From the IMG/VR virus record IMGVR_UViG_3300012973_000875: DNA of 20,000 bases. One strand, 5' to 3'. This stretch comes from an uncultured virus (IMG/VR IMGVR_UViG_3300012973_000875) (lineage: Duplodnaviria > Heunggongvirae > Uroviricota > Caudoviricetes). This document shows positions 3-19,307 of the stretch, in pieces. Under the pieces are notes generated by a model, which was not told the origin of the DNA, ran no database searches, and saw only the letters and a program-made list of their open reading frames with translations. Positions within the stretch are counted from its first letter, which is position 1, and each line of letters starts with the position of its first letter. Made by a program: the position numbers and the translations under genes.

Positions 3-1559
3 CTCCGCGACGCCTCGGTCGTGCGGGGCCAGGAGCACCAGGACCTCTGGGCGCAGTTCATGTCGGGGCACAAGATGCCCACCCCCAAGGTGCCGTTCGT
101 CCACGAGAAGTTCGTCAACCAGTTGAAGGCCGCCGGGATCAACGTCATCCGCGAGGGGACCCGCCACCAGGTGATGGCCCTGACCGACGCCGACGTCCGC
201 GAGATGTCGGGCGACCGCGAGGTCACCTCGGGCGACACGGTCGACTGGAAGGGGGGCCTGAAGCCGATCCGGGGCGGCCTGTTCGACGAGCACCTGACGG
301 GCGGTCACAACGGCAACCGCTGGGCGCACATCAAGCTCCACGAGCCGATGCCCAACCCCGTCATGGAGGAGCCGGTCCGCAAGATCCTGGGCCTGACCGA
401 GAAGGAATACCGCGAGGTCCTGGGGGGCGACCGCCGGATCGCCGGCGCGACCGGCCCGGCGGCGATCGGCAAGGCGCTGGCGGCGATCGACGTCCCCAAG
501 ATGATGGAGCAGGCCCGTGCCGAGATCGCCGGCAGCAAGCGGGGGGCCCGCGACCAGGCGATCCGCAAGCTCCGCTACCTGAAGGCGGCCGATCGGCTCA
601 AGATCCACCCCAAGGACTGGATGCTGTCGCAGGTGCCGGTCCTGCCGCCGATCTTCCGCCCGGTCTCGGTCATGGCCGGCTCGAAGATGCCGATGGTGGC
701 CGACCCCAACTACCTCTACAAGGAACTGCTGGAGGCCAACGACAACCTCAAGACGATGTCCGGGGCGGTCGACGACACCAAGGACGAGCGGCTGGCCCTC
801 TACGACACGTTCAAGGCGGTCACCGGCCTGGGCGACCCGCTCCACCCCAAGAACCAGGAGAAGCAGGTCAAGGGGATCCTCAAGCACGTCTTTGGCAACT
901 CGCCCAAGGTGGGCGTCGTCCAGCGGAAACTGCTGGGAGCCTCGACCGACCTGGTCGGCCGGGCGGTGATCACCCCCAACCCCGACCTCGACATGGACAC
1001 CGTCGGCGTCCCCGAGACCCGGGCCTGGGAGGTCTACAAGCCGTTCCTGATCCGCCGCCTGGTCCGCCGTGGCGTGCCCCGCCAGCAGGCCGCGCAGTTG
1101 GTCCACGACAAGCACCAGCTTGCCAAGGACGCGCTGCTCCAGGAGATGGAGGCCCGCCCGGTGATCATCAACCGGGCCCCGGTGCTCCACCGCTACGGGA
1201 TCATGGCCTTCCGCCCCAAGCTCGTGAAGGGGGACACCCTCCAAGTCAGCCCGCTGATCGTTGGCGGGTTCAACGCCGACTTCGACGGCGACGCCATGCA
1301 GTACCACGTCCCGGCCTCCGACGAGGCGGTCACCGACGCCATGGAGAAGATGCTGCCGTCGCGTAATCTGCTGGCCGCCAGCAACTTCAAGGTCCACCAA
1401 CTCCCCAGCAAGGAATACGGCGGCGGCCTTTACGCGGCCTCCACGTTCCGTGATGATAAGCGGCAGGTCATGCGGTTTAGGACGAAACGCGACGCCATTC
1501 TGGCACGCCAGCAGGGACGGATCGACGTGGACCAGCCGGTCGAGATTCTGGAGGACTGA
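3..1559 (+). CDS. rpoC: DNA-directed RNA polymerase: beta C-terminus fused to the N-terminal half of beta' (5'-truncated by window edge)
   Basis: Frame is open from base 3 (LRDASVVRGQ...). PKVPFVHEKFVNQLKAAGINV resembles the RpoB C-terminus (PESFxVLxKExxSLGxNI). Beta' motifs follow: KPIRGGLFD, WAHIKL, VPVLPPIFRP, KLLG..DLVGRAVI, PVIINRAPVLHR and catalytic FNADFDGDAM (NADFDGD at 1272-1292). Confidence 0.95.
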   Translation, partial: LRDASVVRGQEHQDLWAQFMSGHKMPTPKVPFVHEKFVNQLKAAGINVIREGTRHQVMALTDADVREMSGDREVTSGDTVDWKGGLKPIRGGLFDEHLTGGHNGNRWAHIKLHEPMPNPVMEEPVRKILGLTEKEYREVLGGDRRIAGATGPAAIGKALAAIDVPKMMEQARAEIAGSKRGARDQAIRKLRYLKAADRLKIHPKDWMLSQVPVLPPIFRPVSVMAGSKMPMVADPNYLYKELLEANDNLKTMSGAVDDTKDERLALYDTFKAVTGLGDPLHPKNQEKQVKGILKHVFGNSPKVGVVQRKLLGASTDLVGRAVITPNPDLDMDTVGVPETRAWEVYKPFLIRRLVRRGVPRQQAAQLVHDKHQLAKDALLQEMEARPVIINRAPVLHRYGIMAFRPKLVKGDTLQVSPLIVGGFNADFDGDAMQYHVPASDEAVTDAMEKMLPSRNLLAASNFKVHQLPSKEYGGGLYAASTFRDDKRQVMRFRTKRDAILARQQGRIDVDQPVEILED

Positions 1560-2071
1560 TGGCCGACGACGCACCCGAGAACAACGATGATCCGGTGGCC
1601 GAGGAGCGGGCGAAACTGGCCGCGCAATGGGCCGAGACCTGGGGCGATCCCGACGATCCCCGGACCCGCGCCCGGATCGCCGACACGATCGCCGCGTTGG
1701 AGGAGGGCACGGCGACCGCGCCGGCACCCGGACTGTTCGAGGGTCCGGCGGACATCGACCACATCGTCCAGGTCGTGCTCACCGACGCGCTGCCGACACA
1801 GGTGGCGCTCAACGTGGTCCTGGGCATCGTCCGAGGCGGCCAGCGGTCAGCGATCCGCATGGCCGACCAGATGACCGCGTCGATCGATCCCACCACGGCC
1901 ACGGCGTGCGTCCGGATCGTCCACGTCGCCTCGGACGGAACGATCCAGTACAGCCTCGTCGGCGGTCCGCTCCGGTTCGCGGCGATGACCCACGCGGAAT
2001 TCCAAGCCAAGTACCCGACGCCGTCGCCTGATCACAAGGACGTGAACGATGCCGCACGCGGAAACGATTAA
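1559..2071 (+). CDS. Hypothetical protein (170 aa)
   Basis: ATG overlaps the upstream TGA (TGATG); GC3-rich codon usage like its neighbours; no recognisable motif. Confidence 0.7.
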   Translation: MADDAPENNDDPVAEERAKLAAQWAETWGDPDDPRTRARIADTIAALEEGTATAPAPGLFEGPADIDHIVQVVLTDALPTQVALNVVLGIVRGGQRSAIRMADQMTASIDPTTATACVRIVHVASDGTIQYSLVGGPLRFAAMTHAEFQAKYPTPSPDHKDVNDAARGND

Positions 2072-2843
2072 CTACGACCTGCTCAAGCTGGCCCGGTGGC
2101 GGGTGGCGAATGATCGCGACTTCGAGAAGTCCGCCGTGGTGCCCCCTGGCGGCGGAGCCCCTCCCGGTGGCGACCCCGCCGCGATGGGGGGTGCGCCTCC
2201 GGGCGGTGATCCCATGATGGGGGGCGGAGCCCCCGGCGGCATGGCCCCACCGATGGATCCCGCCGCGATGGGGGGTGCCCCTCCCGGTGGCGACCCCATG
2301 ATGGGGGGTGGCGCCCCTCCCGGCGGCGGTGCCCCGATCGATCCGGCGATGCAGATGGCGATCCAGCAGGCCGTCCAGCAGGCGGTGGGCGGGGCCGGTG
2401 GCGGCATGGCCGGCGGCAAGCCGGGGGCCGGCGGCGGCAAGAAGGCCGAACAGGCCATGCTCGACACCAAGCTCTGGCAGATCATCAAGATGCTCGCCAC
2501 GATGATGACCCACCAGGGCATCCCGGTGCCGCCGGACATCGTCGTCGGGGCTCCTCCCGACCCGGCGATGCTCCAGATGGCCAACCAGGACAACGCCCAG
2601 TCGTCGGTCCCTGGCGGTGGCGGCGATCCGAGCATGGGGGGCGGCGGCGGGGGCGGCATCCCGCCGATCGACCCGATGCAGGCCGACCCCGCGATGGGGG
2701 GCGGGGCTCCCAAGATGGCCGCCGACCGCCAGGCGCACGACCTCGGCTCGGCGTTCGACACCCAGTCGTTCCGGGCCTTGCACAGCCGCTCGGCGTCGCT
2801 GGCGGCGCTGTCCCGCCGCCGCAACCGGGAGACCGCTGAGTGA
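2049..2843 (+). CDS. Gly/Pro/Met-rich low-complexity protein, possible virion or scaffold-associated protein (264 aa)
   Basis: AAGGA SD at 2036-2040; GGAPPGGDP(AA/M)M repeats; K-x-A motifs (EKSA, PKMAA) flank the repeat region. Confidence 0.75.
   Translation: MPHAETINYDLLKLARWRVANDRDFEKSAVVPPGGGAPPGGDPAAMGGAPPGGDPMMGGGAPGGMAPPMDPAAMGGAPPGGDPMMGGGAPPGGGAPIDPAMQMAIQQAVQQAVGGAGGGMAGGKPGAGGGKKAEQAMLDTKLWQIIKMLATMMTHQGIPVPPDIVVGAPPDPAMLQMANQDNAQSSVPGGGGDPSMGGGGGGGIPPIDPMQADPAMGGGAPKMAADRQAHDLGSAFDTQSFRALHSRSASLAALSRRRNRETAE
2143..2340 (+). repeat. Imperfect coding repeats (GGAPPGGDPxxM)
   Basis: CTCCCGGTGGCGACCC occurs at 2161 and 2281; the peptide unit recurs about 4-5 times. Confidence 0.85.
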
Positions 2844-3085
2844 AAGTCGAGATCCTGCGGAACCTGCAACCACTGGTCCTCGACGCGAACCGGGTCGTCC
2901 TCCGCAACAGCTTTGGCGACCCGGTGTTCGTCTGCGTCGAGTACGCCACGAACACGTTCCTGTCCGCCAAGGCGGGGGACCCGGAGTTCGACCGGATCCT
3001 CCAGAACCTGGGGATCCAGAACACACTCGTCGTGGAAACGCTCCACCCCAAGCCGCTCGATGACTGGCGGTTCCCCGGTCGCTAG
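2840..3085 (+). CDS. Hypothetical protein (81 aa)
   Basis: GTG start overlaps the upstream TGA (GTGA); typical codon usage; globular-looking sequence. Confidence 0.7.
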   Translation: MKVEILRNLQPLVLDANRVVLRNSFGDPVFVCVEYATNTFLSAKAGDPEFDRILQNLGIQNTLVVETLHPKPLDDWRFPGR

Positions 3086-3111
3086 GTTAATTAACGTTTA
3101 TCGGGGGCAGG

Positions 3112-5058
3112 ATGCCACTCAAGACCACCGTCGGGCAGTTGCTGATCAACGAGGCGCTCCCGCCGGAGATGCGGGACTACAACCGCACGCTCGATAAGAA
3201 GGGGATCGCCAAGCTCTTCCAGGAGATCGCCGAGAAGCGGCCGGACCTCTACAAGGACGTCGCCCAGAAGCTCTCCGACGTCGGCCGCGACGTCGCCTAC
3301 ACGACCGGCGGCTTCAGCTTCGGGCTGCGGGACATGCTGCCGAGCAAGGTCGCGCAGGTCGCCCGCCAGCAGATCGAGTCCGAGGTTCGGTCGATCCAGG
3401 CCAACCCCCGGCTTACCGACGACCAGAAGGAGGAGGCGATCATCCGCGCGGTGGGCCGCCACCAGCAGACACTCGAAGGCCAGATCTTCGCCGAGGCCAA
3501 GGCGAGCAAGAACCCGCTGGCCGGGCAGATCATGTCGGGGGCACGCGGCAGCCCCATGAACCTCAAGTCGCTGCTGGGGGCCGACCTGCTCTACGTCGAC
3601 CACCACGCCCGCGAGATCCCGATCCCGGTCCTGAACCCGTACCCGCGCGGCCTCTCGCCGGTGGAATACTGGGCCGGGGCGTTCGGGGCCCGCAAGGGGG
3701 TCGCCGACACCAAGTTCGCCACCCAGGAGGCGGGCTATTTCGCCAAGCAGTTGAACCAGATCGACCACCGGCTCGTCGTCACCCAGCAGGATGACGACGA
3801 GGACGACGACGCCAACGGCGCGATTCGCGGCCTGCCGGTCGATACCGATGACGGCGACTCGGCCGGGGCCCTGCTGGCGCAGCCGGTGGGCACCTACAAG
3901 CGCAACACCGTGCTCACCCCGCGCATCCTCAAGGACCTCCAGAACCAGGGGATCAAGCGGATCGTGGTCCGCTCGCCGATGATCGGCGGGCCGGCACAGG
4001 GGGGTGTCTTCGCCCGCGACGTCGGGGTGCGGGAACGGGGCGGCATGGCCCCGCTGGGGGACCAGGTCGGCCTGGCCGCCGCGCAGGCCCTCTCCGAGAA
4101 GCTCACCCAGGGGCAGCTAAGCTCGAAGCACTCCGGCGGCGTCGCCGGGGCCGAGCAGGCGGTCACCGGCTTCAAGTACATCAACCAGTTGATCCAGGTC
4201 CCCAAGACCTTCAAGGGGGGTGCCGCGCACGCCCAGGTCGACGGCATCGTCAACAACGTCACCGACGCCCCGCAGGGGGGCAAGTACATCTTCGTCGGCG
4301 GCGAGCAGCACTACGTCCCGCACGGCGTCGACATCAAGGTCAAGCCGGGCGATGCGATCGAGGCGGGGGACGTCCTGTCCGCCGGGATCCCCAATCCGGC
4401 CGAGATCGTCAAGCACAAGGGGATCGGCGAGGGGCGGCGGTACTTCATGAACACGTTCCGCAAGGCGTACTCCGACTCGGGGATGGGGGCCGACCGGCGG
4501 AACATCGAACTGCTGTCGCGCGGTCTCATCGACCACGTCAACGTCACCGACGAGTTCGGCGACTTCGTCCCCGACGACGTGACCTCGTATTCGACGATCG
4601 AGCGGAACTGGCAACCACGCGACGGCACACGGGCGATGAACACGACCTCGGCGGCGGGCAAGTACCTGGAACGGCCGATCCTCCATTACTCGATTGGCAC
4701 CAAGATCAGACCGAGTATCATAAAAGAGCTTGGTGAATTCGGGGTCAGCAACGTCGAGGTCCATGACGATCCGCCCCCCTTCGAGCCCGTCATGATCCGA
4801 GGGGCCTCGAATCTCCAACACGACCCCGACTTCATCACCCGCCACCTCGGATCCGGCCTCCAGAAGGCCACGCTCGGTGCGGTCCACCTGGGCGGCACGA
4901 GTGATGCAAGCGGAACGAGCTACGTTCCGGCCAAAGTCTGGAATCCGACCGAGTTCGGACGGCAGGGTCTGGTCCAGGGCTGGAAGCCCAAGACCCCGTC
5001 GGTGCTGTCGACGCCTCCGACCCGAGGGCCGTCAGACAATGTCCTCTCACCGCTTTAA
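3112..5058 (+). CDS. rpoC: DNA-directed RNA polymerase beta' C-terminal half (648 aa)
   Basis: TTVGQLLIN, SGARGS, bridge helix GLSPVEYWAGAFGARKGVADTKFATQEAGYFAKQL, trigger loop VGLAAAQALSEKLTQGQLSSKHSGG, VKPGDAIEAGDVLSAG and DRRNIELLSR are all collinear with bacterial RpoC. Confidence 0.93.
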   Translation: MPLKTTVGQLLINEALPPEMRDYNRTLDKKGIAKLFQEIAEKRPDLYKDVAQKLSDVGRDVAYTTGGFSFGLRDMLPSKVAQVARQQIESEVRSIQANPRLTDDQKEEAIIRAVGRHQQTLEGQIFAEAKASKNPLAGQIMSGARGSPMNLKSLLGADLLYVDHHAREIPIPVLNPYPRGLSPVEYWAGAFGARKGVADTKFATQEAGYFAKQLNQIDHRLVVTQQDDDEDDDANGAIRGLPVDTDDGDSAGALLAQPVGTYKRNTVLTPRILKDLQNQGIKRIVVRSPMIGGPAQGGVFARDVGVRERGGMAPLGDQVGLAAAQALSEKLTQGQLSSKHSGGVAGAEQAVTGFKYINQLIQVPKTFKGGAAHAQVDGIVNNVTDAPQGGKYIFVGGEQHYVPHGVDIKVKPGDAIEAGDVLSAGIPNPAEIVKHKGIGEGRRYFMNTFRKAYSDSGMGADRRNIELLSRGLIDHVNVTDEFGDFVPDDVTSYSTIERNWQPRDGTRAMNTTSAAGKYLERPILHYSIGTKIRPSIIKELGEFGVSNVEVHDDPPPFEPVMIRGASNLQHDPDFITRHLGSGLQKATLGAVHLGGTSDASGTSYVPAKVWNPTEFGRQGLVQGWKPKTPSVLSTPPTRGPSDNVLSPL

Positions 5059-5137
5059 GTACGAACTGACGTTTCGACGCGTGCGGGACGACTACCCGCC
5101 CAAGCCGGGCACCCTCTCGATCCTCAAGGAACCACTC

Positions 5138-5782
5138 ATGGCCAGCAAGCTGGGATACACGATCGGGCTGCCCGACCTGGGCGCACTTGACGTCGAAACA
5201 CGGGAACTGATCCTCACGATCGATGGCACCGACCAGACGATCGCGATCACCAAGGACGAGTCGGGCCATTTCCCCACGCAGTACGAGATCATCGTGCCGC
5301 AGGAAGTCCATGTCTCGCTCAAGCTGGTCGATGTCGACGAGGCCGGCAACCGGTCCGAGCCGACCGATCCGTTCGACTTCGAGACGGCCGACTTCACCGC
5401 CCCGGGCAAGCCCGGCACCCTGTCGCTGATCGGCGAGGTCCGTGTCATCGACGACGAGGAGGAGCCTGGCTCCGACTCCGAGCCGGTGGATCCCACCGAA
5501 CCGGTCGACCCGACTGAGCCTGTCGAACCCGTGGATCCAACCGAACCGGTTGACCCCGTGGATCCAACCGAACCGGTTGACCCCGTGGACCCGACTGAGC
5601 CCATTGATCCGATCGAACCGGTCGATCCGACCGAGCCCATTGACCCGACTGAGCCCGTCGAACCCGTGGACCCGACTGCGCCGGTCGATCCGACCGTACC
5701 CGTCGAGCCCGAGCCGGTTGTTCCCGAGCCGGAGTTCCCCGAGCCGGAGATCGGCCCGGAACTGCCGCCCGCCCCGCAGTAA
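5138..5782 (+). CDS. Ig/FN3-like beta-sandwich segment plus acidic Pro-rich (VDPTEP)n tail; possible surface-exposed virion protein
   Basis: AAGGA SD at 5126-5130 precedes ATG 5138 (alternative in-frame ATG at 5039). VDVDEAGNRSEPT...DFTAPGKPG resembles the end of Ig-like/FN3 repeats. A long PVDPTE repeat tract follows. Confidence 0.65.
   Translation: MASKLGYTIGLPDLGALDVETRELILTIDGTDQTIAITKDESGHFPTQYEIIVPQEVHVSLKLVDVDEAGNRSEPTDPFDFETADFTAPGKPGTLSLIGEVRVIDDEEEPGSDSEPVDPTEPVDPTEPVEPVDPTEPVDPVDPTEPVDPVDPTEPIDPIEPVDPTEPIDPTEPVEPVDPTAPVDPTVPVEPEPVVPEPEFPEPEIGPELPPAPQ
5481..5720 (+). repeat. Coding tandem repeat (PVDPTE / PVD units)
   Basis: About 10 imperfect units, including an exact 27-nt tandem duplication at 5528-5554 / 5555-5581. 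Confidence 0.9.
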
Positions 5783-5815: not shown

Positions 5816-5843
5816 GGGCCAGGCGCTACCCAGCGCCTGGCCC
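5816..5843 (+). terminator. Perfect 12-bp hairpin, possible terminator or 5' leader structure
   Basis: GGGCCAGGCGCT-accc-AGCGCCTGGCCC followed by gcttgcgttcttt (weak U-tract). Confidence 0.5.
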
Positions 5844-5867
5844 GCTTGCGTTCTTTGGGAGGCCCGC

Positions 5868-6305: not shown

Positions 6306-8942
6306 GTGGTCACGACTCGCCCCTCACGGAAGACGGAATACTGGCTCACGGTCTGCCGGAGCCACGCGGTCGACGGCCTGTCGATGACCAAGGTGGCCGA
6401 CCTGGGCGGCGACGGCTCCGACATGCCGTTCGAGCAGGCGTTCTCCAACCTGGCGCACGCCTACATCAAGGACAAGGCCCCCGGCCTGCTCGACTACGAG
6501 GTCGGGTTCCAGCTTGTCGATCGCACCGACGACAACAAGAAGGCCATCGGCGTCTTCGGCTTCAAGGTCGGCTCCAGTTGGCTCCTGGTCCCGGTCTTCT
6601 TCCTGGCCGGCGACCTGAAGGGGCACGAGATCCTCTACATCAAGAACCAGGACACCTTCGTGCCGCTGAAGGAAAACTGGATCAACTACATCCTCAACAA
6701 GAAGCCGCTGTCGCTGGGCGAGGGGGTCGGCCGCAACCCCCGCGAGATCGGCATCCGCAACCCCGACTACTCGCAGTTCGCGCATTCCCCCTCGACCTCG
6801 AAGTCGGCCGCCGCGCGAGCCCGGCGGATCACCCCCGAGGAATCGATCGAATTGGCGGCGACCGCCGCCAAGCTCACCAAGGCCGCCGCCGCGACCATGG
6901 ACGCGGCGACCTTCGAGGTCTTTGACGAGATGCCCGCCTGGGCCAAGGTCGCGACCCACTCGATGGCCGTGGCGATGGCCCGCGACCCCCGCACCATGCC
7001 GGCGATCGGGATCGACTTCCCGGCGATGCTCAAGCTGGCCGGTGTCGACGGGGCCAAGGCGACCCTGGCGATGTGCAGCGCCTACCCGACGGTCGCCCGC
7101 GCGATCGACCAGTTCTACCCCCGCGAAACGATCGACGAGGCGATCCGCCACATCAAGCAGGCGGCCACCCGCGTCTCCACCGTCCTCGACGCCGACGACC
7201 CGATGATCCCCAGCCGCTACCGGGTCCGCCGCGAGCCGCAGTCACGGCAGTCGGTCCTGACCCCGAGTAGCCCGGTCAAGCAGGGCTCGCTCCAGGTCTA
7301 CGCCTACGACCCAGGGCAGGAGTCGAATCTTCCCGCGACGATCGCGGAGAAGGACTACGATAAGCTCCTGCGGGACGGTGTCCTGATCAAGGACACCCGC
7401 AAGGGCGATGACGAGGTCTCGATCGCCTACCACACGACGACGACCCGGCAACTGGTCAACCCCGACGTCACCGGGCTCTACGACGTCATGGTCGCCCCCG
7501 ACCTGTACGAGAAGATGCTGGTGATCCTGGGACCGCACGGCCCCTACGGCCGCCGCGACTTCTGCACGGTGATCGCCCTGGACGGGGCCAAAGGGTGGCT
7601 CAACCTCCACCCGACCTACGTCTGGGTATCCAAGCAGCATTCGACCGACGACCTCCAGGACTGGGCCGACAGCCTGCCCGAGGCCGACTCGATCGACGAC
7701 GGTCAGTACGTGCTGCTCAGTCCCGAGGGAACCGACGGCACGCTGCCGTTCGTCCACGACTCGACGACCGCCGGCAAGATCATCAACGTCCACTTCGACC
7801 TGTTCAGCGGCCGGCCCCGCCAGGCGTACATGCGGGGCGAGTCGCACCAACGCAACTTCGACACCCTGGCGGCCAACAACGACGAGCAGTACGACCGCTG
7901 GAACCACGGCGAGCGGATCAACCTCGGGGGCCGCAAGGGGACGACGATCCGCAGCAACTTCGGCGACGTCTTCATCCCCAAGGGCTGGAAGAAGTTCAAG
8001 ATCGAGGAGGCCGACTACGCCGACGACCAGTGGGATGCCCCGGAATACGACGGCTCGAACCAGACCAAGCGGGTCGTCAAGAGCCTGACCGGCGGCCTGG
8101 GGCAATCGAAGACCCCGCCGATCACCGGAGCCAACGTCGTCGATGTCGAACTGGGGATCTGGCAGAAGGTCTCCTCGGTCACCGACCGGCTGGAGATCCG
8201 CGCGACCGGCACCCGGATCGTGATCGACGGTACGCCGTTCACCAAGCGGGCCGCCCTGATCGAACTGGTCCGCGATCGCGGACTCCGCGAGGTCGTGGCC
8301 CGCGACATGATCGCCGACGCCGAGGGTGCCCTGGTCAAGCGCGGGGCCTCCCGCCGCGCGTACCGCGTCCGCTACGCCCCCTGGGTCAAGGCGGCCGCCG
8401 GTGGTCCGTTCCTGACGCACGGGGCCCCGAGTGCACCCCCCTTCCCCGATCCCGAGTCCTCGGGATCGTCGTTCATGGGCACTGGGTTTGAAACCCAGCA
8501 GCCGCAGGAAATGACGATCCCCGTCGACGACATGAAGCAGGACCAGACCGAGGCCCGCGAGTCGCAGAGCCCGTACACCCCCGACCCGATGGCGGCGCAG
8601 GTCGCCACCCAGGCGGCGCAGACCGGCCAGAAGGAGATCTTCGACACCGCGATGGTCGGCAGCCTGCTCAAGACGACCCGCGATGACCTCTTGGTCGACA
8701 AGCACCTGGGGGCCCTGCTCAAGGGGCTCGACAAGATCGGCCGGCTGCTGTTCCTGCTCTACTGGCACCAGGACGAGTTCGCCGACCGCTACGGCAAGGA
8801 GGCGGTCCCCGAACTGGAGGACTCGCTCCGCAACACGTTCGAGAGCCTGGGCGACCTGGTCCTGTTCCTCAAGCAGCGGACGATCGATCCCTACCCCGAC
8901 GGCGGCACGAGTGTTGACCTGAAGGACACCGCCAACGCCTAA
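6306..8942 (+). CDS. Large putative virion/head protein (878 aa)
   Basis: AAGGAGG SD at 6292-6298, GTG start; long ORF with typical codon bias; many K-x-A motifs (KVAD, KSAAA, KAAAA, KLAG, KQAA, KRAA, KAAAG). Function inferred from context only. Confidence 0.8.
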   Translation: MVTTRPSRKTEYWLTVCRSHAVDGLSMTKVADLGGDGSDMPFEQAFSNLAHAYIKDKAPGLLDYEVGFQLVDRTDDNKKAIGVFGFKVGSSWLLVPVFFLAGDLKGHEILYIKNQDTFVPLKENWINYILNKKPLSLGEGVGRNPREIGIRNPDYSQFAHSPSTSKSAAARARRITPEESIELAATAAKLTKAAAATMDAATFEVFDEMPAWAKVATHSMAVAMARDPRTMPAIGIDFPAMLKLAGVDGAKATLAMCSAYPTVARAIDQFYPRETIDEAIRHIKQAATRVSTVLDADDPMIPSRYRVRREPQSRQSVLTPSSPVKQGSLQVYAYDPGQESNLPATIAEKDYDKLLRDGVLIKDTRKGDDEVSIAYHTTTTRQLVNPDVTGLYDVMVAPDLYEKMLVILGPHGPYGRRDFCTVIALDGAKGWLNLHPTYVWVSKQHSTDDLQDWADSLPEADSIDDGQYVLLSPEGTDGTLPFVHDSTTAGKIINVHFDLFSGRPRQAYMRGESHQRNFDTLAANNDEQYDRWNHGERINLGGRKGTTIRSNFGDVFIPKGWKKFKIEEADYADDQWDAPEYDGSNQTKRVVKSLTGGLGQSKTPPITGANVVDVELGIWQKVSSVTDRLEIRATGTRIVIDGTPFTKRAALIELVRDRGLREVVARDMIADAEGALVKRGASRRAYRVRYAPWVKAAAGGPFLTHGAPSAPPFPDPESSGSSFMGTGFETQQPQEMTIPVDDMKQDQTEARESQSPYTPDPMAAQVATQAAQTGQKEIFDTAMVGSLLKTTRDDLLVDKHLGALLKGLDKIGRLLFLLYWHQDEFADRYGKEAVPELEDSLRNTFESLGDLVLFLKQRTIDPYPDGGTSVDLKDTANA

Positions 8943-10578: not shown

Positions 10579-11556
10579 ATGATTCACGAATTCCTCCCCA
10601 GCAATCCGCGTCGGCCCGTCAACTGGCGGTGGGAACGTGCCCGCGACATCGCCGAGGGAGGCGTGCCGCTTTCCCGCAAATACGACGACGTGTGGGTCCG
10701 CAAGGCGCTCCAGTTCCGCCTGGCCGACCGCGAGGCCACGCTCGAACTCGATCGGCTCTACCTCGTCGATCGGATGCCCGACGTCTTCTGGGCCTACGAA
10801 CTGGCGTTCAACGGCGACGCCGATCGCGGCAACTCGATGCGGTCGGAGATCGAGGCCCGGATCCTCTCCCGCGAGAGTGTCAACGACATCGCCTACCGCT
10901 GCGCCACCAGCCCCGAGGTGATCACCGCCTACGAGAAGCTGTTCTTCAACGTCCTCGACCGGATCGATCGGCTCGCCTACATCACCCACCAGGTCTTCAC
11001 GGCGGCCGCGTTCCAGAGCATCCACGAGCGGGACTACGACCTGCTCTGGAAGATGTTCGGCTACTTCGGCGGCCCGCATGTCCTCGACGTGCTGATCACG
11101 ACCTTCCAGAGCGTGCCGCACCCGACCCGGTCCGACGAGGTCACCGGCTTCATCCAGGACACGGCGATGAACGCGCTGCGGCGCAAGGCGCTGATCGCCT
11201 GCCAGACGCTGGGGGTCAACAGCTTCACCGCGACCGAGATCATCGCCCAGTTCATCAAGCTCCACGAGATCGATCGCGCGGCGGGCGGCGGTGGCGGCCA
11301 GCAGTCGATTTCGGCCAACGTCGAGGCCATGGTCGCGGCCCTGGGGCCGACCTTCGCGATCGGTCGCCACGCCGTCAGCGGTGTGGACTCCCCCATGCTC
11401 GCGCATTACGATAGCCAGGGCACCGAACTCACCGGTGCCGAGATGATCGAGGTCACGACGACCGGCGAAATTGACGCGGCCAAGCGGGATATGGTGGAGC
11501 GGCTCCACTTCCCGCCCCCGCCGATCAAGGACGCCTTCTCCAAGGATACGGGATGA
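10579..11556 (+). CDS. Hypothetical helical protein (325 aa)
   Basis: ATG 10579 follows an AT-rich palindromic spacer; strong coding bias from this point; stop overlaps the next start. Confidence 0.8.
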   Translation: MIHEFLPSNPRRPVNWRWERARDIAEGGVPLSRKYDDVWVRKALQFRLADREATLELDRLYLVDRMPDVFWAYELAFNGDADRGNSMRSEIEARILSRESVNDIAYRCATSPEVITAYEKLFFNVLDRIDRLAYITHQVFTAAAFQSIHERDYDLLWKMFGYFGGPHVLDVLITTFQSVPHPTRSDEVTGFIQDTAMNALRRKALIACQTLGVNSFTATEIIAQFIKLHEIDRAAGGGGGQQSISANVEAMVAALGPTFAIGRHAVSGVDSPMLAHYDSQGTELTGAEMIEVTTTGEIDAAKRDMVERLHFPPPPIKDAFSKDTG

Positions 11557-13025
11557 TGGTCGAACCGATGAACGAGCACGGCGAGCGGCTCATCCTCCGC
11601 GCCCTGGAGGATGTGGCCGAGCACGCCAGCGGGTCGATGTCGCCCAACGACGCGATCGTCAAGGCGGCCTCCGACCACCAGATCCCACCGGGGCATATCC
11701 CCATCCTGGTGCAGGCATACAACACCGGCCGGACCACGCGGCAACGCGAAGCGGGTGACGACCCGCACGAGAAGTCGGCCGACTTCGACCTGGCCTCGAC
11801 CGCCGAGGTCATGGAGGCACTCTACCCGTCGGCGCTCAAGGCGGCCGCCGCCCAGCGGCGGGCCAGTGCGGTCTCCTCGGACTACGACCGCCCGCCCGAC
11901 GCCTGGTACAAGGCGGTCAAGCAGGCCGAGGTCTTCGAGAAGGCCGCCGCCTCGATCCGGCCGAGCATCCTCCCCGAGGGGGTGACCGTCCCCCCGCTGC
12001 CGACGGATCCCACGCTGCCGGTCAAGCGGGCCTACGCCGCCGCCCAGCGGCGACAACGCGATGTCGAGAACGCCCGCCGCGAGGTGGCCGGCTCGCAGGA
12101 CCTGCTGATCGCCAGCCTGACCAAGCTCGCCGCCTACTTCCGCACCCCGGGGCACCTGCCGCTGGCCGAGGTCGCCTACAACGCCACGACCGCGTATGGC
12201 GTCGAGGGGACGGCGGTGCTCGACCACGTCCGCAGCCACCTACCCGCGTCGTTCCAGAAGCAGGCCGCCTACGACGAACGCCCCACCCACGCGGTCAACA
12301 CCCACGTGGCGCCGTACAGCACGATCCGCCAGGCCGTGACCCAGGTCCGCCAGGTGATCGCCGCCAACGACCACTACGTCAAGCTGGCGCAGGCGAACGT
12401 CACGCAGACGGCGGAGGAACTCGCCCCTTTCGTGGCCACCACGCGGTCGTCGAGCGTCCTGGAAGGCGTGAGCGCGAGTCCGTCCTCGGCCCTGGATCCC
12501 ACCGGGACCCAGTCCGCCTTGGGGGCGTCCTTGACCAAACACGCCAATCGAGGACTGGGCGCGTGGTTTCGCGATAATGTGTTCGCCGCCAAGATGACCT
12601 CGGACATCGTCAACAACGTGGCGCAGGGGATGGCGGCCAACCGGCCGAGCAAGAACGACCAGATCAACAAGTCACTCCAGGAGATCTCCTCGCCGTCGCA
12701 CGAGCAGAGCCTCCGCGACATCCGCGCCCGCGCCATGCTCCAGGACATGATGGCCAACGACGAGGTCATCTCCGGCTACGACCCGACCGAGGTCACCGAG
12801 GCATTCAACGGGATCAGCAGCATGGTCCCCCGGATCGCCAATCAGCCGCTCTACGTGCAGGCCCTGCTCCGCAAGCAACTCGCGCAGAAGCACCTCGACA
12901 CGTTCGACTACGACAACCTGACGGGCACGGAAAAGAATCTCAAAGAGATTCACCGCCCCTCGGCACCAGGGATTGGGATCAGGACCAAAGACAATGACAC
13001 CCAACTGCCCAGCGTACTATCTTGA
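11553..13025 (+). CDS. Putative internal head protein, K-x-A rich (490 aa)
   Basis: ATGA coupling; ten K-x-A motifs (VKAAS, EKSAD, LKAAA, VKQAE, EKAAA, VKRAY, TKLAA, QKQAA, VKLAQ, TKHAN). Confidence 0.8.
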   Translation: MMVEPMNEHGERLILRALEDVAEHASGSMSPNDAIVKAASDHQIPPGHIPILVQAYNTGRTTRQREAGDDPHEKSADFDLASTAEVMEALYPSALKAAAAQRRASAVSSDYDRPPDAWYKAVKQAEVFEKAAASIRPSILPEGVTVPPLPTDPTLPVKRAYAAAQRRQRDVENARREVAGSQDLLIASLTKLAAYFRTPGHLPLAEVAYNATTAYGVEGTAVLDHVRSHLPASFQKQAAYDERPTHAVNTHVAPYSTIRQAVTQVRQVIAANDHYVKLAQANVTQTAEELAPFVATTRSSSVLEGVSASPSSALDPTGTQSALGASLTKHANRGLGAWFRDNVFAAKMTSDIVNNVAQGMAANRPSKNDQINKSLQEISSPSHEQSLRDIRARAMLQDMMANDEVISGYDPTEVTEAFNGISSMVPRIANQPLYVQALLRKQLAQKHLDTFDYDNLTGTEKNLKEIHRPSAPGIGIRTKDNDTQLPSVLS

Positions 13026-14073
13026 CCGGGACCCGGCCGAAGCCGCCGAGTTCCTGGCCAAGCTCGCCGTGGCCAGCCGTCGCGTGGGCGGGTTTGTCAA
13101 GGCGGCCGACATGCCTCCCGAGGTCGCGGCCGTGCTCCGTAACGGCCTGATCGGCGCGGGCGTCGGCGGCGTGGCCGGCGGGATCTCCGGGCTGCTCAAT
13201 CGCAAACGCCGCAACCCGCTCCGCACCGCCCTGACCGGGGCGTTGATCGGTGGCGGGCTGGGGGCGTCGGGCACGGCGCTCAAGGGGGTCTACGACAGCT
13301 ACGCCGGCAACGGTCCGCAGGGGGGCCCGGCGTCGATGACCGACCAGGCGGCGGCCAGTCAGGACACGGCCCTGGCCGCCGCCGCCGCCGCCAAGACCCC
13401 GGCGGCCCGGCTCATCGAGCGGATCCCCGGCCTGGGCGGACCCGCTCCGGTCGGACCCCGGAGCACAGCGGCCCAGAAGAACCACACCCTGATCGACGAT
13501 GCGAAGGGCGCCGCTGGCCAGGCCATCGACGCCGGGGGTCAGGCGTTCCAGCAGGACCCGCTCCGGACCGGTCTGTCGGTTGGTGGCGGGATCGCCGGCA
13601 CGGCCGCCGGGATCCGCAGCGGCCAGACCGCCGCACGGAACCAGGCGATCAACTCGCTGGCCACCGACGACGCGGCCATGAGCCGGATGAAGAGCCAGGG
13701 CGGTGCCGACGCCCAGGCCCAGGCGCTACGGACCCAGATGCTCAACCGCCAACTCAGCCCGACCCAGTTCCGCCAGGCGCTGAAGCAGAACCCCGCACTG
13801 GCCGCCGAATACAAGGCGACCAGGGCCCAGACCCCGAGCGTCCGCCGCAGCGCCGGTCGCGGCCTGGCCGGCGGCGCCGTCGGCAGCCTCGCCCCGTTCT
13901 TCGGCGAGCAACTCGCCCGGAAGTATCTGCGCCGGACCCTCCCGGGGTCCCCGGTCGGCCTGCAAGACCTCCCCGGGGTCAACGCACTCGGCCAGCATCT
14001 CCAAGGCGCGCGGCCGCCGCAGGCCGGTGACGCCTGGGGCCTCATCGACAGCTACAAAGGCGGTGGCCGATGA
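12994..14073 (+). CDS. Glycine-zipper protein, putative ejected / membrane-inserting virion protein (359 aa)
   Basis: AGGA at 12981 before ATG 12994; GxxxG hydrophobic hairpins GLIGAGVGGVAGGISGLL / ALTGALIGGGLGASG, GLSVGGGIAGTAAG and GLAGGAVGSLAPFFG; VKAA just before the first zipper. Confidence 0.7.
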   Translation: MTPNCPAYYLDRDPAEAAEFLAKLAVASRRVGGFVKAADMPPEVAAVLRNGLIGAGVGGVAGGISGLLNRKRRNPLRTALTGALIGGGLGASGTALKGVYDSYAGNGPQGGPASMTDQAAASQDTALAAAAAAKTPAARLIERIPGLGGPAPVGPRSTAAQKNHTLIDDAKGAAGQAIDAGGQAFQQDPLRTGLSVGGGIAGTAAGIRSGQTAARNQAINSLATDDAAMSRMKSQGGADAQAQALRTQMLNRQLSPTQFRQALKQNPALAAEYKATRAQTPSVRRSAGRGLAGGAVGSLAPFFGEQLARKYLRRTLPGSPVGLQDLPGVNALGQHLQGARPPQAGDAWGLIDSYKGGGR

Positions 14074-15545
14074 TGTACAAGGTGCTCGCACCCAATTCCT
14101 GGCGGTTCGACGACCCGATCGCCCAGATGGTCAAGGTCTCCTCGCGGGGCCTGCGGGGCCACGACCTCAACAGCTTCATCAAGCGGGCCGGCCACCGGTT
14201 CGTCGACGACCTGGCGATGGTCAAGGCGGGCGAGATCCCGGTCCACCTGATCGCGATCGGGGCCCGCGAATACTACAACGCCAACCGCAACGGCGACGGC
14301 TTCTCCGAGGCGGTCTGCGAGCGGACGCACCCGACGTTCACGAAGTACGCGCGGTTCTACCGCAACCACAAGAACAAGGACCCCAAGATCTCCTACGGCC
14401 GGGTCATCAAGAGTGCCTACCACCAGTCGATGCGCCGCATCGAACTGCTGGTCGGCCTCAACGGCGATGACCGCGCGGTGGCTGCCAACGGCGGCTTCCT
14501 GGCCGACAAGGAGATGGAGAAGCTGGCCAAGGGGGAAGACATCCCGGTGTCGATGGCCTGCCGGGTGCCGTACGACGTCTGCTCGGGGTGCGACAACCAC
14601 GCCCGCAGCCAGGCCGAATACTGCGACGGCGCCATGTGCAAGTACGGCGGGCTGAAGCACAACATCGGCCGCACCTTCGCCGATGGGCACACGCTCTACG
14701 CCGACAACACCGAGCCGACCTTCTTCGACATCTCCAACGTCTACCGTCCGGCCGACCGGATCGCCTACACCTTTGGCCGCCTGGAGAAGGCGGCGGCCGC
14801 CGGCCAGATCGTCTCCGGCGCGGCGCTGGCCGAGGAGCTTGGCCTGGAGATCCCGATCGCGATGCGGATCGACCCGAGCACCCCCGAGCGGGTGGCCCGG
14901 CAGATCAAGATTGCCCACCACATGGCCGAGGCCGAGGTCCAGGCGGCACGCCGGCAGGCCCAACCTGGTGACGCGGCGTTCCATCCGGCCGTCGCCCCGC
15001 CGATCCAGACCTTCCCCGCCGTGACCGAGTCGCGGTCGCGACTGGGCGAAACACTGCACGCGCTGGCCGCCGAGAAGGTCGCGCTGTCGCTGCGGGACTT
15101 CCTGGTCCTGGTCAGCGGCGACGTCAAGCAGGCCGAGGCGGCCCTGCCCGACGTGGCGCAGCAACTGCCCGGCGTCTTCGGCCGCCTGGTCGCCAGCCCG
15201 ACCCTCGACACCGATCTGCGGGAGAACCCGTTCAACCCGTCGCGGGCGACCCCCGCCACGGCCCTGCGGCAGTGGGCCCAGAAGCAGGCCGCCGCGCACA
15301 GCCTGGACGCCGCGCACCGCGCCCGCCGCGCGACCCTGGCGGCGATCCGGTCGGTGCCCGCGCCGGCGGTGCGCACGACGACGGCGGCCATGGAGAAAGA
15401 GGCCGCCGACCACGGCGGCGCCGAGCAACTCGCCCGCCAGTTTGCCATCTACGAGTTGGCGTTCCTTGACGCCGTCAGCGGGCCCGAAGACGCTGGTTTT
15501 CCTAACACCGCCGCTTGTCTGTCCCGAAAGAACTACCTATCCTAG
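14070..15545 (+). CDS. Prohead (capsid maturation) serine protease with Cys-rich insert and C-terminal extension
   Basis: NRNGDGF, FYRNHKN (His codon 14367), GRVIKS, VSMAC (Ser codon 14550), CSGC...C...C insert and FFDISNVYRPAD form the motif order of HK97/herpes-fold prohead proteases. Located upstream of scaffold-like and capsid-like genes. Confidence 0.8.
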   Translation: MMYKVLAPNSWRFDDPIAQMVKVSSRGLRGHDLNSFIKRAGHRFVDDLAMVKAGEIPVHLIAIGAREYYNANRNGDGFSEAVCERTHPTFTKYARFYRNHKNKDPKISYGRVIKSAYHQSMRRIELLVGLNGDDRAVAANGGFLADKEMEKLAKGEDIPVSMACRVPYDVCSGCDNHARSQAEYCDGAMCKYGGLKHNIGRTFADGHTLYADNTEPTFFDISNVYRPADRIAYTFGRLEKAAAAGQIVSGAALAEELGLEIPIAMRIDPSTPERVARQIKIAHHMAEAEVQAARRQAQPGDAAFHPAVAPPIQTFPAVTESRSRLGETLHALAAEKVALSLRDFLVLVSGDVKQAEAALPDVAQQLPGVFGRLVASPTLDTDLRENPFNPSRATPATALRQWAQKQAAAHSLDAAHRARRATLAAIRSVPAPAVRTTTAAMEKEAADHGGAEQLARQFAIYELAFLDAVSGPEDAGFPNTAACLSRKNYLS

Positions 15546-15592
15546 ATTTGCAACAGGATAGGCAGGATGCTGATCGGGCAAGGAGTCCCACG

Positions 15593-17071
15593 ATGCCGCA
15601 GTCCCAGCACGCCGCAATTCTCGACAGTCTGTCCGGCCTGCTCACCCAAATCGGACAGACCAAGTCGGCCAGCGTGAAGCAGGCCGACAAGCCGATCGGC
15701 GAGGCCGGCGGCTACGAAGGGGACACCTCCCACCCCGTCAAGAACGCCCCCAACAACACGATCAGGCCGACCGAAGGGGCGCGCTCCGCCGAGAACACCA
15801 AGGACGTCAAGGACCAGATCCCGCAGAACGTCGACGAGACGGCCGAGGATCGCTCGGTCTTCGGGACCAAGGGTTCGGGCAACCAGGACAAGGTCCAGAC
15901 CCAGATCGGCGCGCACCACGCCGCCACTGGCGAGGACCCCTCGGTCGAGAACGACTTCAAGGGCGACAAGGACGATCCCGGCACGTCGTCGCAGATGACG
16001 ACCGAGGACAGCACCAAGTACGGCTCGTACCGCGCGATGCCCTTCGCCAAGCTCGCCGCGCTCCAGGCCACCCTGGGCAACGAGATCCTGGCCGACATCT
16101 CCAACGGCCTGCTCGTCGACGCCGGGACGGCCAAGCGGGCCGCCGCTGCCGCCAAGCGGGCCGCCGCTGCCGGCAAGCGGCTGGGGGACAACGTCGACAA
16201 CGGCACGATCAAGGTCAACGGCGGCAAGCAGGTGCCCGCCAAGCCCAAGGATCCCGCCGCCGCCCAGGCCGAGGCCGGCGAGCCCGAGATCCATGCGACC
16301 GACGAGTCGGTCCAGAAGGCGGCCGCCGCCGGCTACAACATGGCTGCGGCGGCCGGCGTTGGCTCCGACCCCGAGGCCCAGACCCGCGACCTGATCTATC
16401 AGACGGTCAAGGAAGCCCACATCCAGGCCGACCTGTTCGCCGATTACATCATCAAGCTCGCCGAGGGCGAGGGGGGCATGGCCGAGGGGGAGGATCACTC
16501 CGCCGCCGGTGACGCCGCCTCGGGGATGAATGACATGGGGGGCATGGGCGGCATGGGGGGCGACCCGGGCATGGGGGGCGACCCCGGCATGGGGGGCGGC
16601 GACCCGCTGTCCGTCCTGAGCCAGCTTCCTCCCGAGCAACTGGCCCAGCTTGCCGAGATGGTCGTCAGTGGCGAACTGCCGCTGGACGGCGGCATGGGTG
16701 GCGATCCAGGCATGGGGGGTGACCCCGCGATGGGGGGTGACCCGGCCATGGGGGGTGATCCCGCGATGGGCGGCGGCGCCATGGACGCCCTGGGTGCCGG
16801 CCCGATGCCCGGTGGTCCGGTGAGCCCCGAGGAGTCGCTCGACGCCCTGGGTAACGCCTCCGCCGAGGCGGGCGCCACCCCGGACGACCTGATGTCGCAG
16901 GCCCCCAAGGCCGCCAGTGTCCAGGCCCGTGCCGACATCGTCAAGGTCGCCTCGGCCCTCAAGCAGCACATGCGCAGCGGCAAGTTCCGGCTGGGTGCCC
17001 CCAAGACGGCCCGAGCCCGGCGGATCCACGACGAGATGCGGACGTTCGTCCAGGAAGTCATGGGCTACTAG
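15593..17071 (+). CDS. Putative scaffolding / internal head protein (492 aa)
   Basis: AAGGAG SD at 15580-15585, ATG 15593; acidic, largely disordered, MGGDP(G/A) repeats, many K-x-A motifs; lies between protease and capsid genes. Confidence 0.7.
   Translation: MPQSQHAAILDSLSGLLTQIGQTKSASVKQADKPIGEAGGYEGDTSHPVKNAPNNTIRPTEGARSAENTKDVKDQIPQNVDETAEDRSVFGTKGSGNQDKVQTQIGAHHAATGEDPSVENDFKGDKDDPGTSSQMTTEDSTKYGSYRAMPFAKLAALQATLGNEILADISNGLLVDAGTAKRAAAAAKRAAAAGKRLGDNVDNGTIKVNGGKQVPAKPKDPAAAQAEAGEPEIHATDESVQKAAAAGYNMAAAAGVGSDPEAQTRDLIYQTVKEAHIQADLFADYIIKLAEGEGGMAEGEDHSAAGDAASGMNDMGGMGGMGGDPGMGGDPGMGGGDPLSVLSQLPPEQLAQLAEMVVSGELPLDGGMGGDPGMGGDPAMGGDPAMGGDPAMGGGAMDALGAGPMPGGPVSPEESLDALGNASAEAGATPDDLMSQAPKAASVQARADIVKVASALKQHMRSGKFRLGAPKTARARRIHDEMRTFVQEVMGY
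16130..16171 (+). repeat. Exact 21-nt tandem duplication encoding (AKRAAAA)x2
   Basis: GCCAAGCGGGCCGCCGCTGCC at 16130-16150 and 16151-16171. Confidence 0.9.
16535..16775 (+). repeat. Coding repeats MGGDP(G/A)
   Basis: Two clusters of 18-nt imperfect units (about 16535-16606 and 16693-16775). Confidence 0.85.
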
Positions 17072-17136: not shown

Positions 17137-17565
17137 ATGCCCGCCGACGCCCAGAGCATTCCCGAACGAGCCGTCGACTTCGTCGGCGTGTCGGCTGCGA
17201 TCACCGAGCAGTACGCCGACACGCTGGAGAAGCAAGCCGCGATGCAGAAGGAGGCCGACGCGTTGATCCCCGACGTCGTCCAGGCCCTGCTCGCCAACGG
17301 CCGGATCGACCCGGGCCAGGAGAAGGAAGCGACCGCCGCGCTGAAGAGCCACACGCGGACGCTGCAAATCCTGCTCAAGACGGCCGCGCACCGTACCGAC
17401 GCCGAGGGGAGCGACATCGCCATGGGCCGCCCCGCCCCGGCCGTCAAGCAGGCCGGCGCCCGTAGCTCGCTCACCAATCCCTATGTCGGTGCCCGCCGTG
17501 CCGACCCGTTCGATACCGAAAGCAACCGGGCCCTGCTGCGGGGTCTGGGCATCGCCTCGCAGTAA
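17137..17565 (+). CDS. Small helical head-module protein (142 aa)
   Basis: CAGGAG SD; EKQAA, LKTAA and VKQAG motifs. Confidence 0.8.
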   Translation: MPADAQSIPERAVDFVGVSAAITEQYADTLEKQAAMQKEADALIPDVVQALLANGRIDPGQEKEATAALKSHTRTLQILLKTAAHRTDAEGSDIAMGRPAPAVKQAGARSSLTNPYVGARRADPFDTESNRALLRGLGIASQ

Positions 17566-18247: not shown

Positions 18248-18302
18248 GTCGTACTTGGTTTAAGAACTTGGTTTTCCCACAGTGACACGGAGGTCGCGAC
18301 CC

Positions 18303-19238
18303 ATGGCGACGGCTCTCAATCGCAGCGAAGTCCAACTGCTCAACGAGACCCTGTTCGAGCAACTCGACAACCCCGGCATGGTCAAGTCGGCCATCGATGC
18401 GGTGAACGACTTCACCCGCATCAAGATGCGTGAAGACGGCTTCGCCCGGCGGATCATGCCGTCGATCGAGATCTCCAACGAGGAACTCGACCGCCAGGTC
18501 GGCGACGACAAGCCGGTCAAGGTCGTCGACAAGGAGCCCGATAGCCCGGCGGCCATCTCGGTGCCGTTCGCGACGCTCCCCACCTCGGTCTACATCCGTG
18601 GCCCCCGTTACAAGGTCGCCTTCGACCGGATCGTGACGCCCCGGTTCACCAAGGACGTCGACGAGCTACGCACCTGGGTCATGGACATCCGCCAGGTCCT
18701 CTCGGACAACGCCATCAAGGACATGCTGGCCGAAGAGGACAGCAAGTTCCTGGCGGCCGTGAACCGGGCCCTGATGGCTCCGGACACCCCCCTGCCCTGG
18801 TCGGGCGTCCCGCAGTGGGAAACGATCTACGGTGGCATCACCCGTGACACGGTGATGGACGCCATGAAGATCATGCCCAAGACGGACGCACACCTCGAAG
18901 CCGCCACCCTGCTGATCAACAACGTCACGTTGTACGAGATCATGAAGTGGGGCCGCGACGAGATCGGTGGCGACCTGAGCCAGGACCTGTTGCGGAACGG
19001 CTGGTCCGAAGCCGAGTTCATGAACCGCCGGTGGGTCGTCACGATCAAGCGTGACTTGGTCCCCGACGACACGATGTACATGTTCGCGGACCCCAAGTTC
19101 ATCGGGAAGGCTTACCTTCTCGAAGATACCACGATGTATATAAAGAGGGAAGCTTTTTTAATGGAGTTCTTCGCCTATGAGACGATGGGCATGACCATCG
19201 CGCACACAGGCGGCTTGGCCAGGGCTGACTTCGCCTAA
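18303..19238 (+). CDS. Putative major capsid protein (HK97-like fold, 311 aa)
   Basis: Strong GGAGGT SD, ATG 18303; size, position at the end of the head operon and a strong terminator directly after. REDGFARRIMP and MLAEEDSKFLAAV resemble HK97-fold N-arm and backbone-helix segments. Confidence 0.75.
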   Translation: MATALNRSEVQLLNETLFEQLDNPGMVKSAIDAVNDFTRIKMREDGFARRIMPSIEISNEELDRQVGDDKPVKVVDKEPDSPAAISVPFATLPTSVYIRGPRYKVAFDRIVTPRFTKDVDELRTWVMDIRQVLSDNAIKDMLAEEDSKFLAAVNRALMAPDTPLPWSGVPQWETIYGGITRDTVMDAMKIMPKTDAHLEAATLLINNVTLYEIMKWGRDEIGGDLSQDLLRNGWSEAEFMNRRWVVTIKRDLVPDDTMYMFADPKFIGKAYLLEDTTMYIKREAFLMEFFAYETMGMTIAHTGGLARADFA

Positions 19239-19271: not shown

Positions 19272-19307
19272 ACAGCCCGGCCACTCGGCCGGGCTGTTTG
19301 CGTTTCC
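19272..19307 (+). terminator. Intrinsic terminator after the capsid gene
   Basis: ACAGCCCGGCC-actc-GGCCGGGCTGT perfect 11-bp stem followed by ttgcgttt. Confidence 0.8.

Follow-up and report, generated by a model that had tools for sequence, protein, structure and literature searches.

A two-chain phage RNA polymerase without cysteine or zinc sites, a candidate for virion-packaged and ejected enzyme cargo

The virion RNA polymerase (RNAP) of phage N4 has a T7-like core, whose fold is unrelated to that of the multisubunit RNAPs. A virion RNAP of the multisubunit, bacterial type is found in phage phiKZ, where it is annotated as a structural head protein. N4 gp50 and DEV gp71, the virion RNAPs of two members of the Schitoviridae, are without cysteine (Cys) according to PMC11445570, which bears out the premise from which the original prediction on the present locus started; the same text gives gp71 homologues a Cys content of 0.00075% versus 0.865% for the proteomes, and links the suppression of Cys in the virion RNAP and the ejection operon to passage through the periplasm. 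The non-virion RNAP of phage AR9 lacks the N-terminal zinc domain of beta' (PMC7618050), a domain that is common to all multisubunit RNAPs in a generalisation by Lane and Darst quoted in that paper. The sections of a jumbo-phage review at hand describe only phiKZ-type and YonO-type enzymes (PMC7824862), and no report of a Cys-free or zinc-free multisubunit phage RNAP appears among the titles and abstract openings of the literature searched. Here we analyse a 20,000-nucleotide stretch of DNA (the window) from an uncultured virus of the Caudoviricetes (IMG/VR IMGVR_UViG_3300012973_000875), at the start of which two genes encode a multisubunit RNAP that has no Cys and, as judged by alignment, neither of the zinc sites of bacterial beta'. 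The features of these two genes are as follows.

3..1559, + strand: chain 1, an open reading frame (ORF) of 518 amino acids (aa), open at its 5' end; the C-terminal portion of the full-length protein P0124.
273..332, + strand: zinc-ribbon scar, GGLFDEHLTGGHNGNRWAHI, with a 32-residue gap versus Salmonella rpoC (MAFFT).
1272..1292, + strand: NADFDGD, intact and aligned to solved bacterial beta' chains.
3112..5058, + strand: chain 2, beta'C, 648 aa, no Cys, Pfam Rpb1_5.
3685..3759, + strand: stretch aligned with the bacterial GARKGLADTALKT..YLTRRLVDV segment, presumably the bridge helix.
3775..3798, + strand: VVTQQDDD versus bacterial VVTEDDC, where C814 is the first ligand in the second zinc site.
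3970..4026, + strand: RSPMIGGPAQGGVFARDVG versus bacterial RS..SC....GVC..CYG, with C888, C895 and C898 replaced by G, F and D.

The window's own full-length first product is P0124 (1442 aa), encoded on a 73,596-base contig, whose final 518 residues are identical to ORF 3-1559. Pfam places Rpb2_2, Rpb2_3 and Rpb2_6 in P0124 ahead of Rpb1_1 and Rpb1_2, the latter two lying in ORF 3-1559. The NCBIfam rpoB alignment stops at residue 972 of P0124 (window nucleotide ~146) and rpoC_TIGR spans residues 1055-1440, the beta' alignment starting at nucleotide ~174 and the BLASTP match to Salmonella beta' at window residue 58. Since the rpoC_TIGR profile then resumes at position 548 in the second ORF (beta'C residues 3-489 aligning to profile positions 548-1057), the enzyme consists of a beta-beta'N fusion and a separate beta'C. 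Both ORFs match bacterial beta' chains in the PDB (E 8e-52 for the fusion part, E 6.6e-37 for beta'C), and both are matched collinearly by phrog_25354, a family of 1216 positions whose function is unassigned. On the strength of these alignments, the gene pair specifies the catalytic core of a multisubunit phage RNAP, with all of beta and the Mg-binding N-terminal half of beta' in chain 1 and the rest of beta' in chain 2. NADFDGD is the catalytic Mg-binding motif of beta', and a stretch of beta'C with what we take to be the trigger-loop histidine also aligns with bacterial beta'. The scores, 304 bits versus a cut-off of 896 for rpoB, and 209 and 198 bits versus 963.5 for rpoC_TIGR, are below the cellular cut-offs, which indicates that we are dealing with a divergent viral lineage and not with a cellular orthologue. 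Both frames are open, and their GC content at third codon positions (GC3) is 0.91-0.95.

With Salmonella rpoC as reference, the aligned chains lack the two structural zinc sites found in bacterial beta', as had been predicted. The 32-residue deletion removes C70, C72, C85 and C88 of the N-terminal zinc ribbon and leaves the flanks GLFD..G and RW.H..L in place; an identical gap is present in Salmonella phage Arash, in Vibrio phage D69 and in all six homologues from the window's own clade that were aligned (6/6). At the second site, C814, C888, C895 and C898 (Salmonella numbering) have become D, G, F and D. In the C814 column, where Arash and D69 have C, the window sequence and seven aligned homologues of its clade show D, G, A, E, H or S, while G, Y/F and D at the former C888, C895 and C898 are conserved in 7/7 of these homologues. 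Given that the ribbon gap is common to Arash, D69 and the clade, and that the second site is kept in Arash and D69, the ribbon was presumably lost before the two groups split, and the second site only in the window's clade.

The claim that neither visible chain contains a Cys was correct (0 in 518 + 648 aa, with coordinates and quoted peptides exact), and it extends to the upstream beta portion, which had been envisaged as possibly Cys-rich: the full 1442-aa P0124 has none, giving 0 in 2090 aa overall. The remaining ORFs of the window, leaving aside one Cys-rich HNH ORF, hold 26 Cys in 5209 aa (0.50%), a rate at which ~10 would be expected in 2090 aa, with a Poisson estimate for zero of ~3e-5; four further ORFs of 142-518 aa are likewise Cys-free. 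TGY codons are common out of frame in both RNAP genes (23 and 18 in frame +1), and methionine is not avoided (3.3% in the fusion chain). The Cys-rich ORF, 19385-19999, comes just after the capsid gene and runs off the 3' end of the window; its 205 aa include 14 Cys and match HNH endonucleases and WRC weakly, showing that this phage does encode Cys-rich proteins.

The trait is shared by the relatives. Among 119 fusion homologues, 93 are Cys-free, 20 carry inserts and six hold a single Cys each; the corresponding numbers for 119 beta'C homologues, at 57-69% identity, are 108, 10 and one. Close homologues with intact zinc sites, the other sequence finding that had been thought capable of overturning the idea, did not turn up, those at 57-69% identity being without both sites. 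Nearly all Cys in the insert-bearing forms lie inside the inserts (234 of 235 in the 27 inserts of the fusion forms, 53 of 53 in the beta'C forms), leaving 7 Cys in ~173,700 aa and 1 in ~77,600 aa outside them across the two sets of 119. The inserts begin with CL.. and end with ..VSN, and several match LAGLIDADG and Hint families in Pfam; by these sequence hallmarks they are inteins. They occupy nine or ten sites, after reference residues 336/339, 389, 577, 762, 802 and 880 of the fusion and after 201/210, 327 and 336 of beta'C. The residue directly after the intein is Ser or Thr in 37 of 37 cases and never Cys, from which it follows that the rule against Cys acts on the spliced protein and not on the DNA. 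The inteins sit in the relatives P0012-P0110 and P0128-P0240; the RNAP genes of the window are intein-free.

A comparison within 80 related metagenome loci, ranging from 35 to 72% GC, gives 0.48 and 0.25 Cys per 1000 aligned residues for the two RNAP genes, and 10.0, 10.3, 4.7 and 20.3 per 1000 for four neighbouring families in the same loci. No such depletion is seen in beta' homologues of other phages (RHph_Y65, 16 Cys in 1127 aa; Va2, 17 in 1192; IME392, 9 in 522), each of which carries, close to its N-terminus, a CxC..CxxC cluster resembling the ribbon. As far as sequence comparison can tell, strong selection maintains the Cys-free, zinc-site-free state across a very large uncultured clade.

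This clade comprises 1103 clusters (50% identity) at E <= 1e-30 in the representative library, where the best 150 matches all fall within it, and its members are found on uncultured contigs of up to ~250 kb; a scan of viral contigs with beta'C returned one partial locus only. The nearest cultured phages are Arash and the Vibrio phages D69, D148 and D181, at 30-31% identity for the fusion part and 26-27% for beta'C. In many relatives (P0244-P0392, P0081, P0088, P0095) beta'C is lengthened at its C-terminus, to as much as 1770 aa, by sequence that is little conserved and dominated by Pro, Ala and Gln. Many of these extensions are without Cys, and 69 of 149 representatives are wholly Cys-free. 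Pfam names only DUF5661 and DUF4269 in these extensions, in 2 of the 7 scanned, and in P0332 a helicase resembling Arash Gp217 is fused to beta'C. The extensions have no tblastn match in the window, where beta'C ends at 648 aa, and no helicase or sigma factor was matched among the window ORFs by Pfam or PHROG.

What could keep an RNAP free of thiols and zinc? We think it reasonably probable that the enzyme is packaged in the virion and ejected into the host together with the DNA. It would be assembled into the capsid late in infection, would leave with the DNA, and would then transcribe the early genes without the host RNAP. An enzyme that must endure storage outside the cell, a narrow tail channel and perhaps an oxidising periplasm, and must be active instantly, would benefit from needing no zinc insertion, and the absence of thiols would preclude wrong disulfides during the passage, an argument already made in print for the N4-like virion RNAPs (PMC11445570). 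The position of the genes, which the original prediction had adduced, fits: the RNAP genes lie on the same strand as a prohead protease fold (14070-15545), a scaffold-like gene and the capsid gene (18282-19238), 9-13 kb upstream of them, with a homologue of Arash Gp218 in between.

Arash offers the closest protein data. According to PMC10585845, Gp206, the Arash fusion chain, was the most detected protein of a virion preparation (3516 spectra), and the beta'C chain Gp216 (1210), Gp217 (1148), Gp218 (1149) and the sigma factor Gp10 (467) were present as well. There is a single Cys among the 1525 aa of Gp206; Gp216 has four, all of them zinc ligands, and the helicase Gp217 (472 aa) and Gp10 (234 aa) have none, whereas the first 21 ORFs of Arash average 0.59% Cys; the four proteins Gp206, Gp216, Gp217 and Gp10 are thus Cys-avoiding and also detected in the preparation.

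Several observations weigh against packaging. The Arash preparation, as described in PMC10585845, was obtained by sucrose gradient and pelleting and contained 116 proteins, including ribonucleotide reductases, primase and kinases, and its authors offer carry-over of abundant enzymes as an alternative. The evidence is carried over by homology from a phage whose chains are only 26-31% identical, to a clade known from sequence alone. A purge of Cys is unnecessary for packaging, given that the second zinc site persists in Arash and D69 and that the phiKZ virion RNAP has 16 Cys in 2614 aa; nor is loss of the ribbon specific to virions, as the AR9 non-virion RNAP is also without it (PMC7618050). No long N-terminal targeting sequence or pro-peptide is present in beta'C, whose profile match runs from residue 3, and the positions of the Pfam domains suggest the same for the fusion chain; no added domain is visible in either window chain by Pfam or NCBIfam. 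The motif K-x-A-[A/S], frequent in ORFs of the head module, is absent from both RNAP chains (raw counts), and transcription of the RNAP genes may end at a strong hairpin behind ORF 5039-5782, ahead of the head genes. We conclude that the purge of Cys is neither required for packaging nor proof of it. The prediction that the enzyme is packaged and ejected has gained from the detection of Gp206 and Gp216 in the Arash preparation, but its step from a Cys- and zinc-free chain to a packaged one was loose, as Arash, D69, phiKZ and AR9 show.

The same observations could be explained if the RNAP were made only after infection and the ribbon and thiols had been lost for another reason, which we regard as unlikely though deserving serious attention. 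Conceivably the loss protects the enzyme from a factor, of phage or host origin, that inactivates host RNAP by way of the beta' zinc ribbon, or else lets it tolerate an infected cell that is oxidising, reactive towards thiols or short of zinc. The ribbon-less non-virion enzyme of AR9 (PMC7618050), the lack of a visible pro-peptide or targeting domain, the possible terminator between RNAP and head genes, and the long Arash list with its many metabolic enzymes (PMC10585845) all agree with it. However, such an enzyme accounts for the loss of the ribbon and not for a purge to ~0.004% Cys or for Ser or Thr after 37 inteins, and the oxidation-sensitive Met, at 3.3% of the fusion chain, is not avoided. 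Moreover, the sole comparable purge found in print (PMC11445570) concerns ejected proteins, and the RNAP, helicase and sigma factor of Arash combine avoidance of Cys with detection in the virion preparation (PMC10585845). Packaging thus remains the reading that we prefer.

That the absence of Cys is a by-product of composition, or of drift after loss of the zinc sites, and has no function, is highly improbable. Cys is indeed fairly rare throughout the window (0.50% in the other ORFs), and the four further Cys-free ORFs agree with this explanation, but the trait is kept from 35 to 72% GC while neighbouring genes carry 5-20 Cys per 1000, hundreds of homologues at 57-69% identity have gained almost none, inteins within the same genes have a normal Cys content, and off-frame TGY codons are frequent. 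Finally, that the genes are decaying relics of an inactive enzyme, as two missing structural zinc sites and NCBIfam scores far under the cellular cut-offs might suggest, can practically be dismissed in view of the open frames with GC3 of 0.91-0.95, the intact NADFDGD, the aligning bridge-helix and trigger-loop stretches, the 1103 clusters at E <= 1e-30 and the conserved replacement residues at the former zinc site.

The surroundings of the RNAP genes are 65-74% GC over most of the window, and all recognisable genes are on the + strand. The features outside the two RNAP genes are these.

1559..2071, + strand: 170-aa ORF between the RNAP genes, 1 Cys; codon-position GC fits coding.
2049..2843, + strand: 264-aa Cys-free ORF with GGAPP(M/G)DP-type repeats, between the RNAP genes, a position kept in relatives.
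2840..3085, + strand: conserved 81-aa ORF directly upstream of beta'C, GC3 0.90.
5039..5782, + strand: ORF of ~247 aa (from codon-phase GC and translation) that overlaps the beta'C end; N-terminal part ordered, tail made of PVDPTE-type repeats.
6306..8942, + strand: 878-aa weak homologue of Arash Gp218.
11553..13025: 490-aa ORF with an all-helical predicted model; 0 Cys here, 4.7 per 1000 in relatives.
12973..14073: 366-aa Gly- and Ala-rich ORF, weak Gly-zipper match.
14070..15545, + strand: prohead protease candidate with the fold of T4 gp21 and herpesvirus assemblin at residues ~27-226 and a helical C-terminal half.
15515..17071, + strand: 518-aa Cys-free, Trp-free, low-complexity ORF with AKRAAAA and GMGGDP repeats.
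18282..19238, + strand: major capsid protein (phrog_2522 major head protein, E 1.2e-6; PDB 6wkk_A 'Gp27 major capsid protein', E 9.2e-8).

Three small genes separate the two RNAP genes. The first, ORF 1559-2071, has no Pfam or PHROG match and no tblastn match in the 80 related loci. The second, the repeat protein, has tblastn matches in 16 loci, whose 2755 aligned aa contain no Cys, eight positional counterparts having been aligned, and may be a disordered partner or a packaging adaptor; a GMGGDP repeat akin to its own lies at 16534-16770, within ORF 15515-17071. The third, ORF 2840-3085, is matched in 23 loci and does not avoid Cys (13 per 1000). ORF 5039-5782 contains tandem repeats at 5478-5749 and is followed at ~5816-5843 by the hairpin mentioned above (-32 kcal/mol, z -3.75); another hairpin follows the capsid gene at 19272-19297 (-25.4 kcal/mol, z -3.4). 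Both (5816-5855 and 19272-19305) are GC-strong, have 4-nt loops and end in similar tails, GCUUGCGUUCUUU and UUUGCGUUUCC. Their sequences make them candidate terminators overlooked by the consensus scan for promoters and terminators, whose counts in the window were no higher than in shuffles. A tRNA scan of the window found none.

Arash gp218 matches the window at 6441-6830 by tblastn (26.5% over 132 aa, E 7.7e-6), the window being among 33 sequences matched; ORF 6306-8942 otherwise gave only weak encapsulin-segment matches (E 0.007), and an Atlas search returned no usable match for it. ORFs 11553-13025 and 12973-14073 sit between the RNAP region and the protease; the former was considered as a portal and rejected, its model being all-helical and without a Foldseek match at E <= 0.001. 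For the protease candidate the AF2 model has a mean pLDDT of 75.8 and aligns by VIA-align to 5jbl_C with Z 9.2 and a root-mean-square deviation of 2.9 over 128 residues, herpes proteases following at Z 4-5; by Foldseek alone, nothing reached E <= 0.001 (5jbl_B, E 0.64, prob 0.80). ORF 15515-17071, whose relatives have 1.3 Cys per 1000, is a candidate scaffold because it lies between the protease and the capsid gene. Raw counts of the K-x-A-[A/S] motif are 5, 5, 3, 7 and 2 in ORFs 6306-8942, 11553-13025, 14070-15545, 15515-17071 and 17137-17565.

In summary, a picture that we put forward tentatively, at somewhat less than even confidence, is that of a lineage of large phages that carries its only transcription enzyme in the capsid, as a two-chain RNAP without metal site or thiol that would be threaded out unfolded and refold without a cofactor. 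If true, no multisubunit RNAP from nature would have been shown earlier to work without zinc, and a family-wide purge of Cys would become a marker, readable from sequence alone, of the enzymes that uncultured phages eject, with the GGAPPMDP-repeat protein as the first further candidate. A naturally Cys-less two-chain RNAP would be a handy scaffold for site-specific labelling and folding studies. New in this work are the intein control, the comparisons with phiKZ and other phages, and the retention of the second zinc site in Arash.

Among cellular enzymes, the beta::beta' fusions (NCBIfam PRK09603, PRK14844) join beta head-to-tail to beta', as does the window fusion, and the split of the window beta' lies within ~20 residues of that between rpoC1 and rpoC2 of cyanobacteria and plastids (residue 23 of P0002 corresponding to rpoC2 profile position 3). 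Unlike the window RNAP, however, the cellular forms either fuse the whole of beta' or split it, and never do both, and the scores against the NCBIfam models of the fused and split forms are far below the cut-offs (375.6 versus 5372 bits and 173 versus 1117 bits).

Arash (Gp206, 1525 aa; Gp216, 606 aa) and D69, D148 and D181 share with the window the beta-beta'N fusion, the separate beta'C, the deletion of the ribbon and the scarcity of free Cys, and Arash gp206 covers 97% of ORF 3-1559. PF00623 is matched just once in Arash and once in D69, so that this enzyme is apparently their sole RNAP. They differ in that their beta'C retains four Cys, its only ones, all at the second zinc site, which makes the window's clade a zinc-site-free branch. 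Arash also has a helicase after beta'C, where the window has none, and a portal two genes upstream of the fusion; no recognisable portal was found there by PHROGs and Pfam in L015, the one relative inspected, and the Arash portal Gp204 has no tblastn match in the window or the 80 loci.

Phage phiKZ splits beta and beta' into more pieces than the window phage and has a second, non-virion set. Its virion chains gp80, gp149, gp178 and gp180 total 2614 aa with 16 Cys, a rate only about half that of the non-virion chains (33 in 2850), in an assignment of gene products to the two enzymes that is partly our assumption. gp80 keeps a Zn2-like cluster, and gp180 lacks the four-Cys cluster that the non-virion gp55 has (C58, C60, C73, C76). 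AR9, compared by description only, resembles the window RNAP in the loss of the ribbon, but its enzyme is a non-virion one; the window RNAP thus contradicts the generalisation of Lane and Darst and exceeds the AR9 exception, in that the second zinc site and every Cys are gone as well. The family-wide suppression of Cys is what the window RNAP shares with the N4-like virion RNAPs, which consist of one chain of ~3400-3500 aa and not of two chains with Rpb1 and Rpb2 domains, and for which (in N4 and DEV) ejection has been shown, whereas that of the window RNAP is only inferred. If packaging is confirmed, the phages whose virions deliver a transcription enzyme would include, next to those with N4-type enzymes of one chain and the phiKZ group, a third group that is uncultured and very large.

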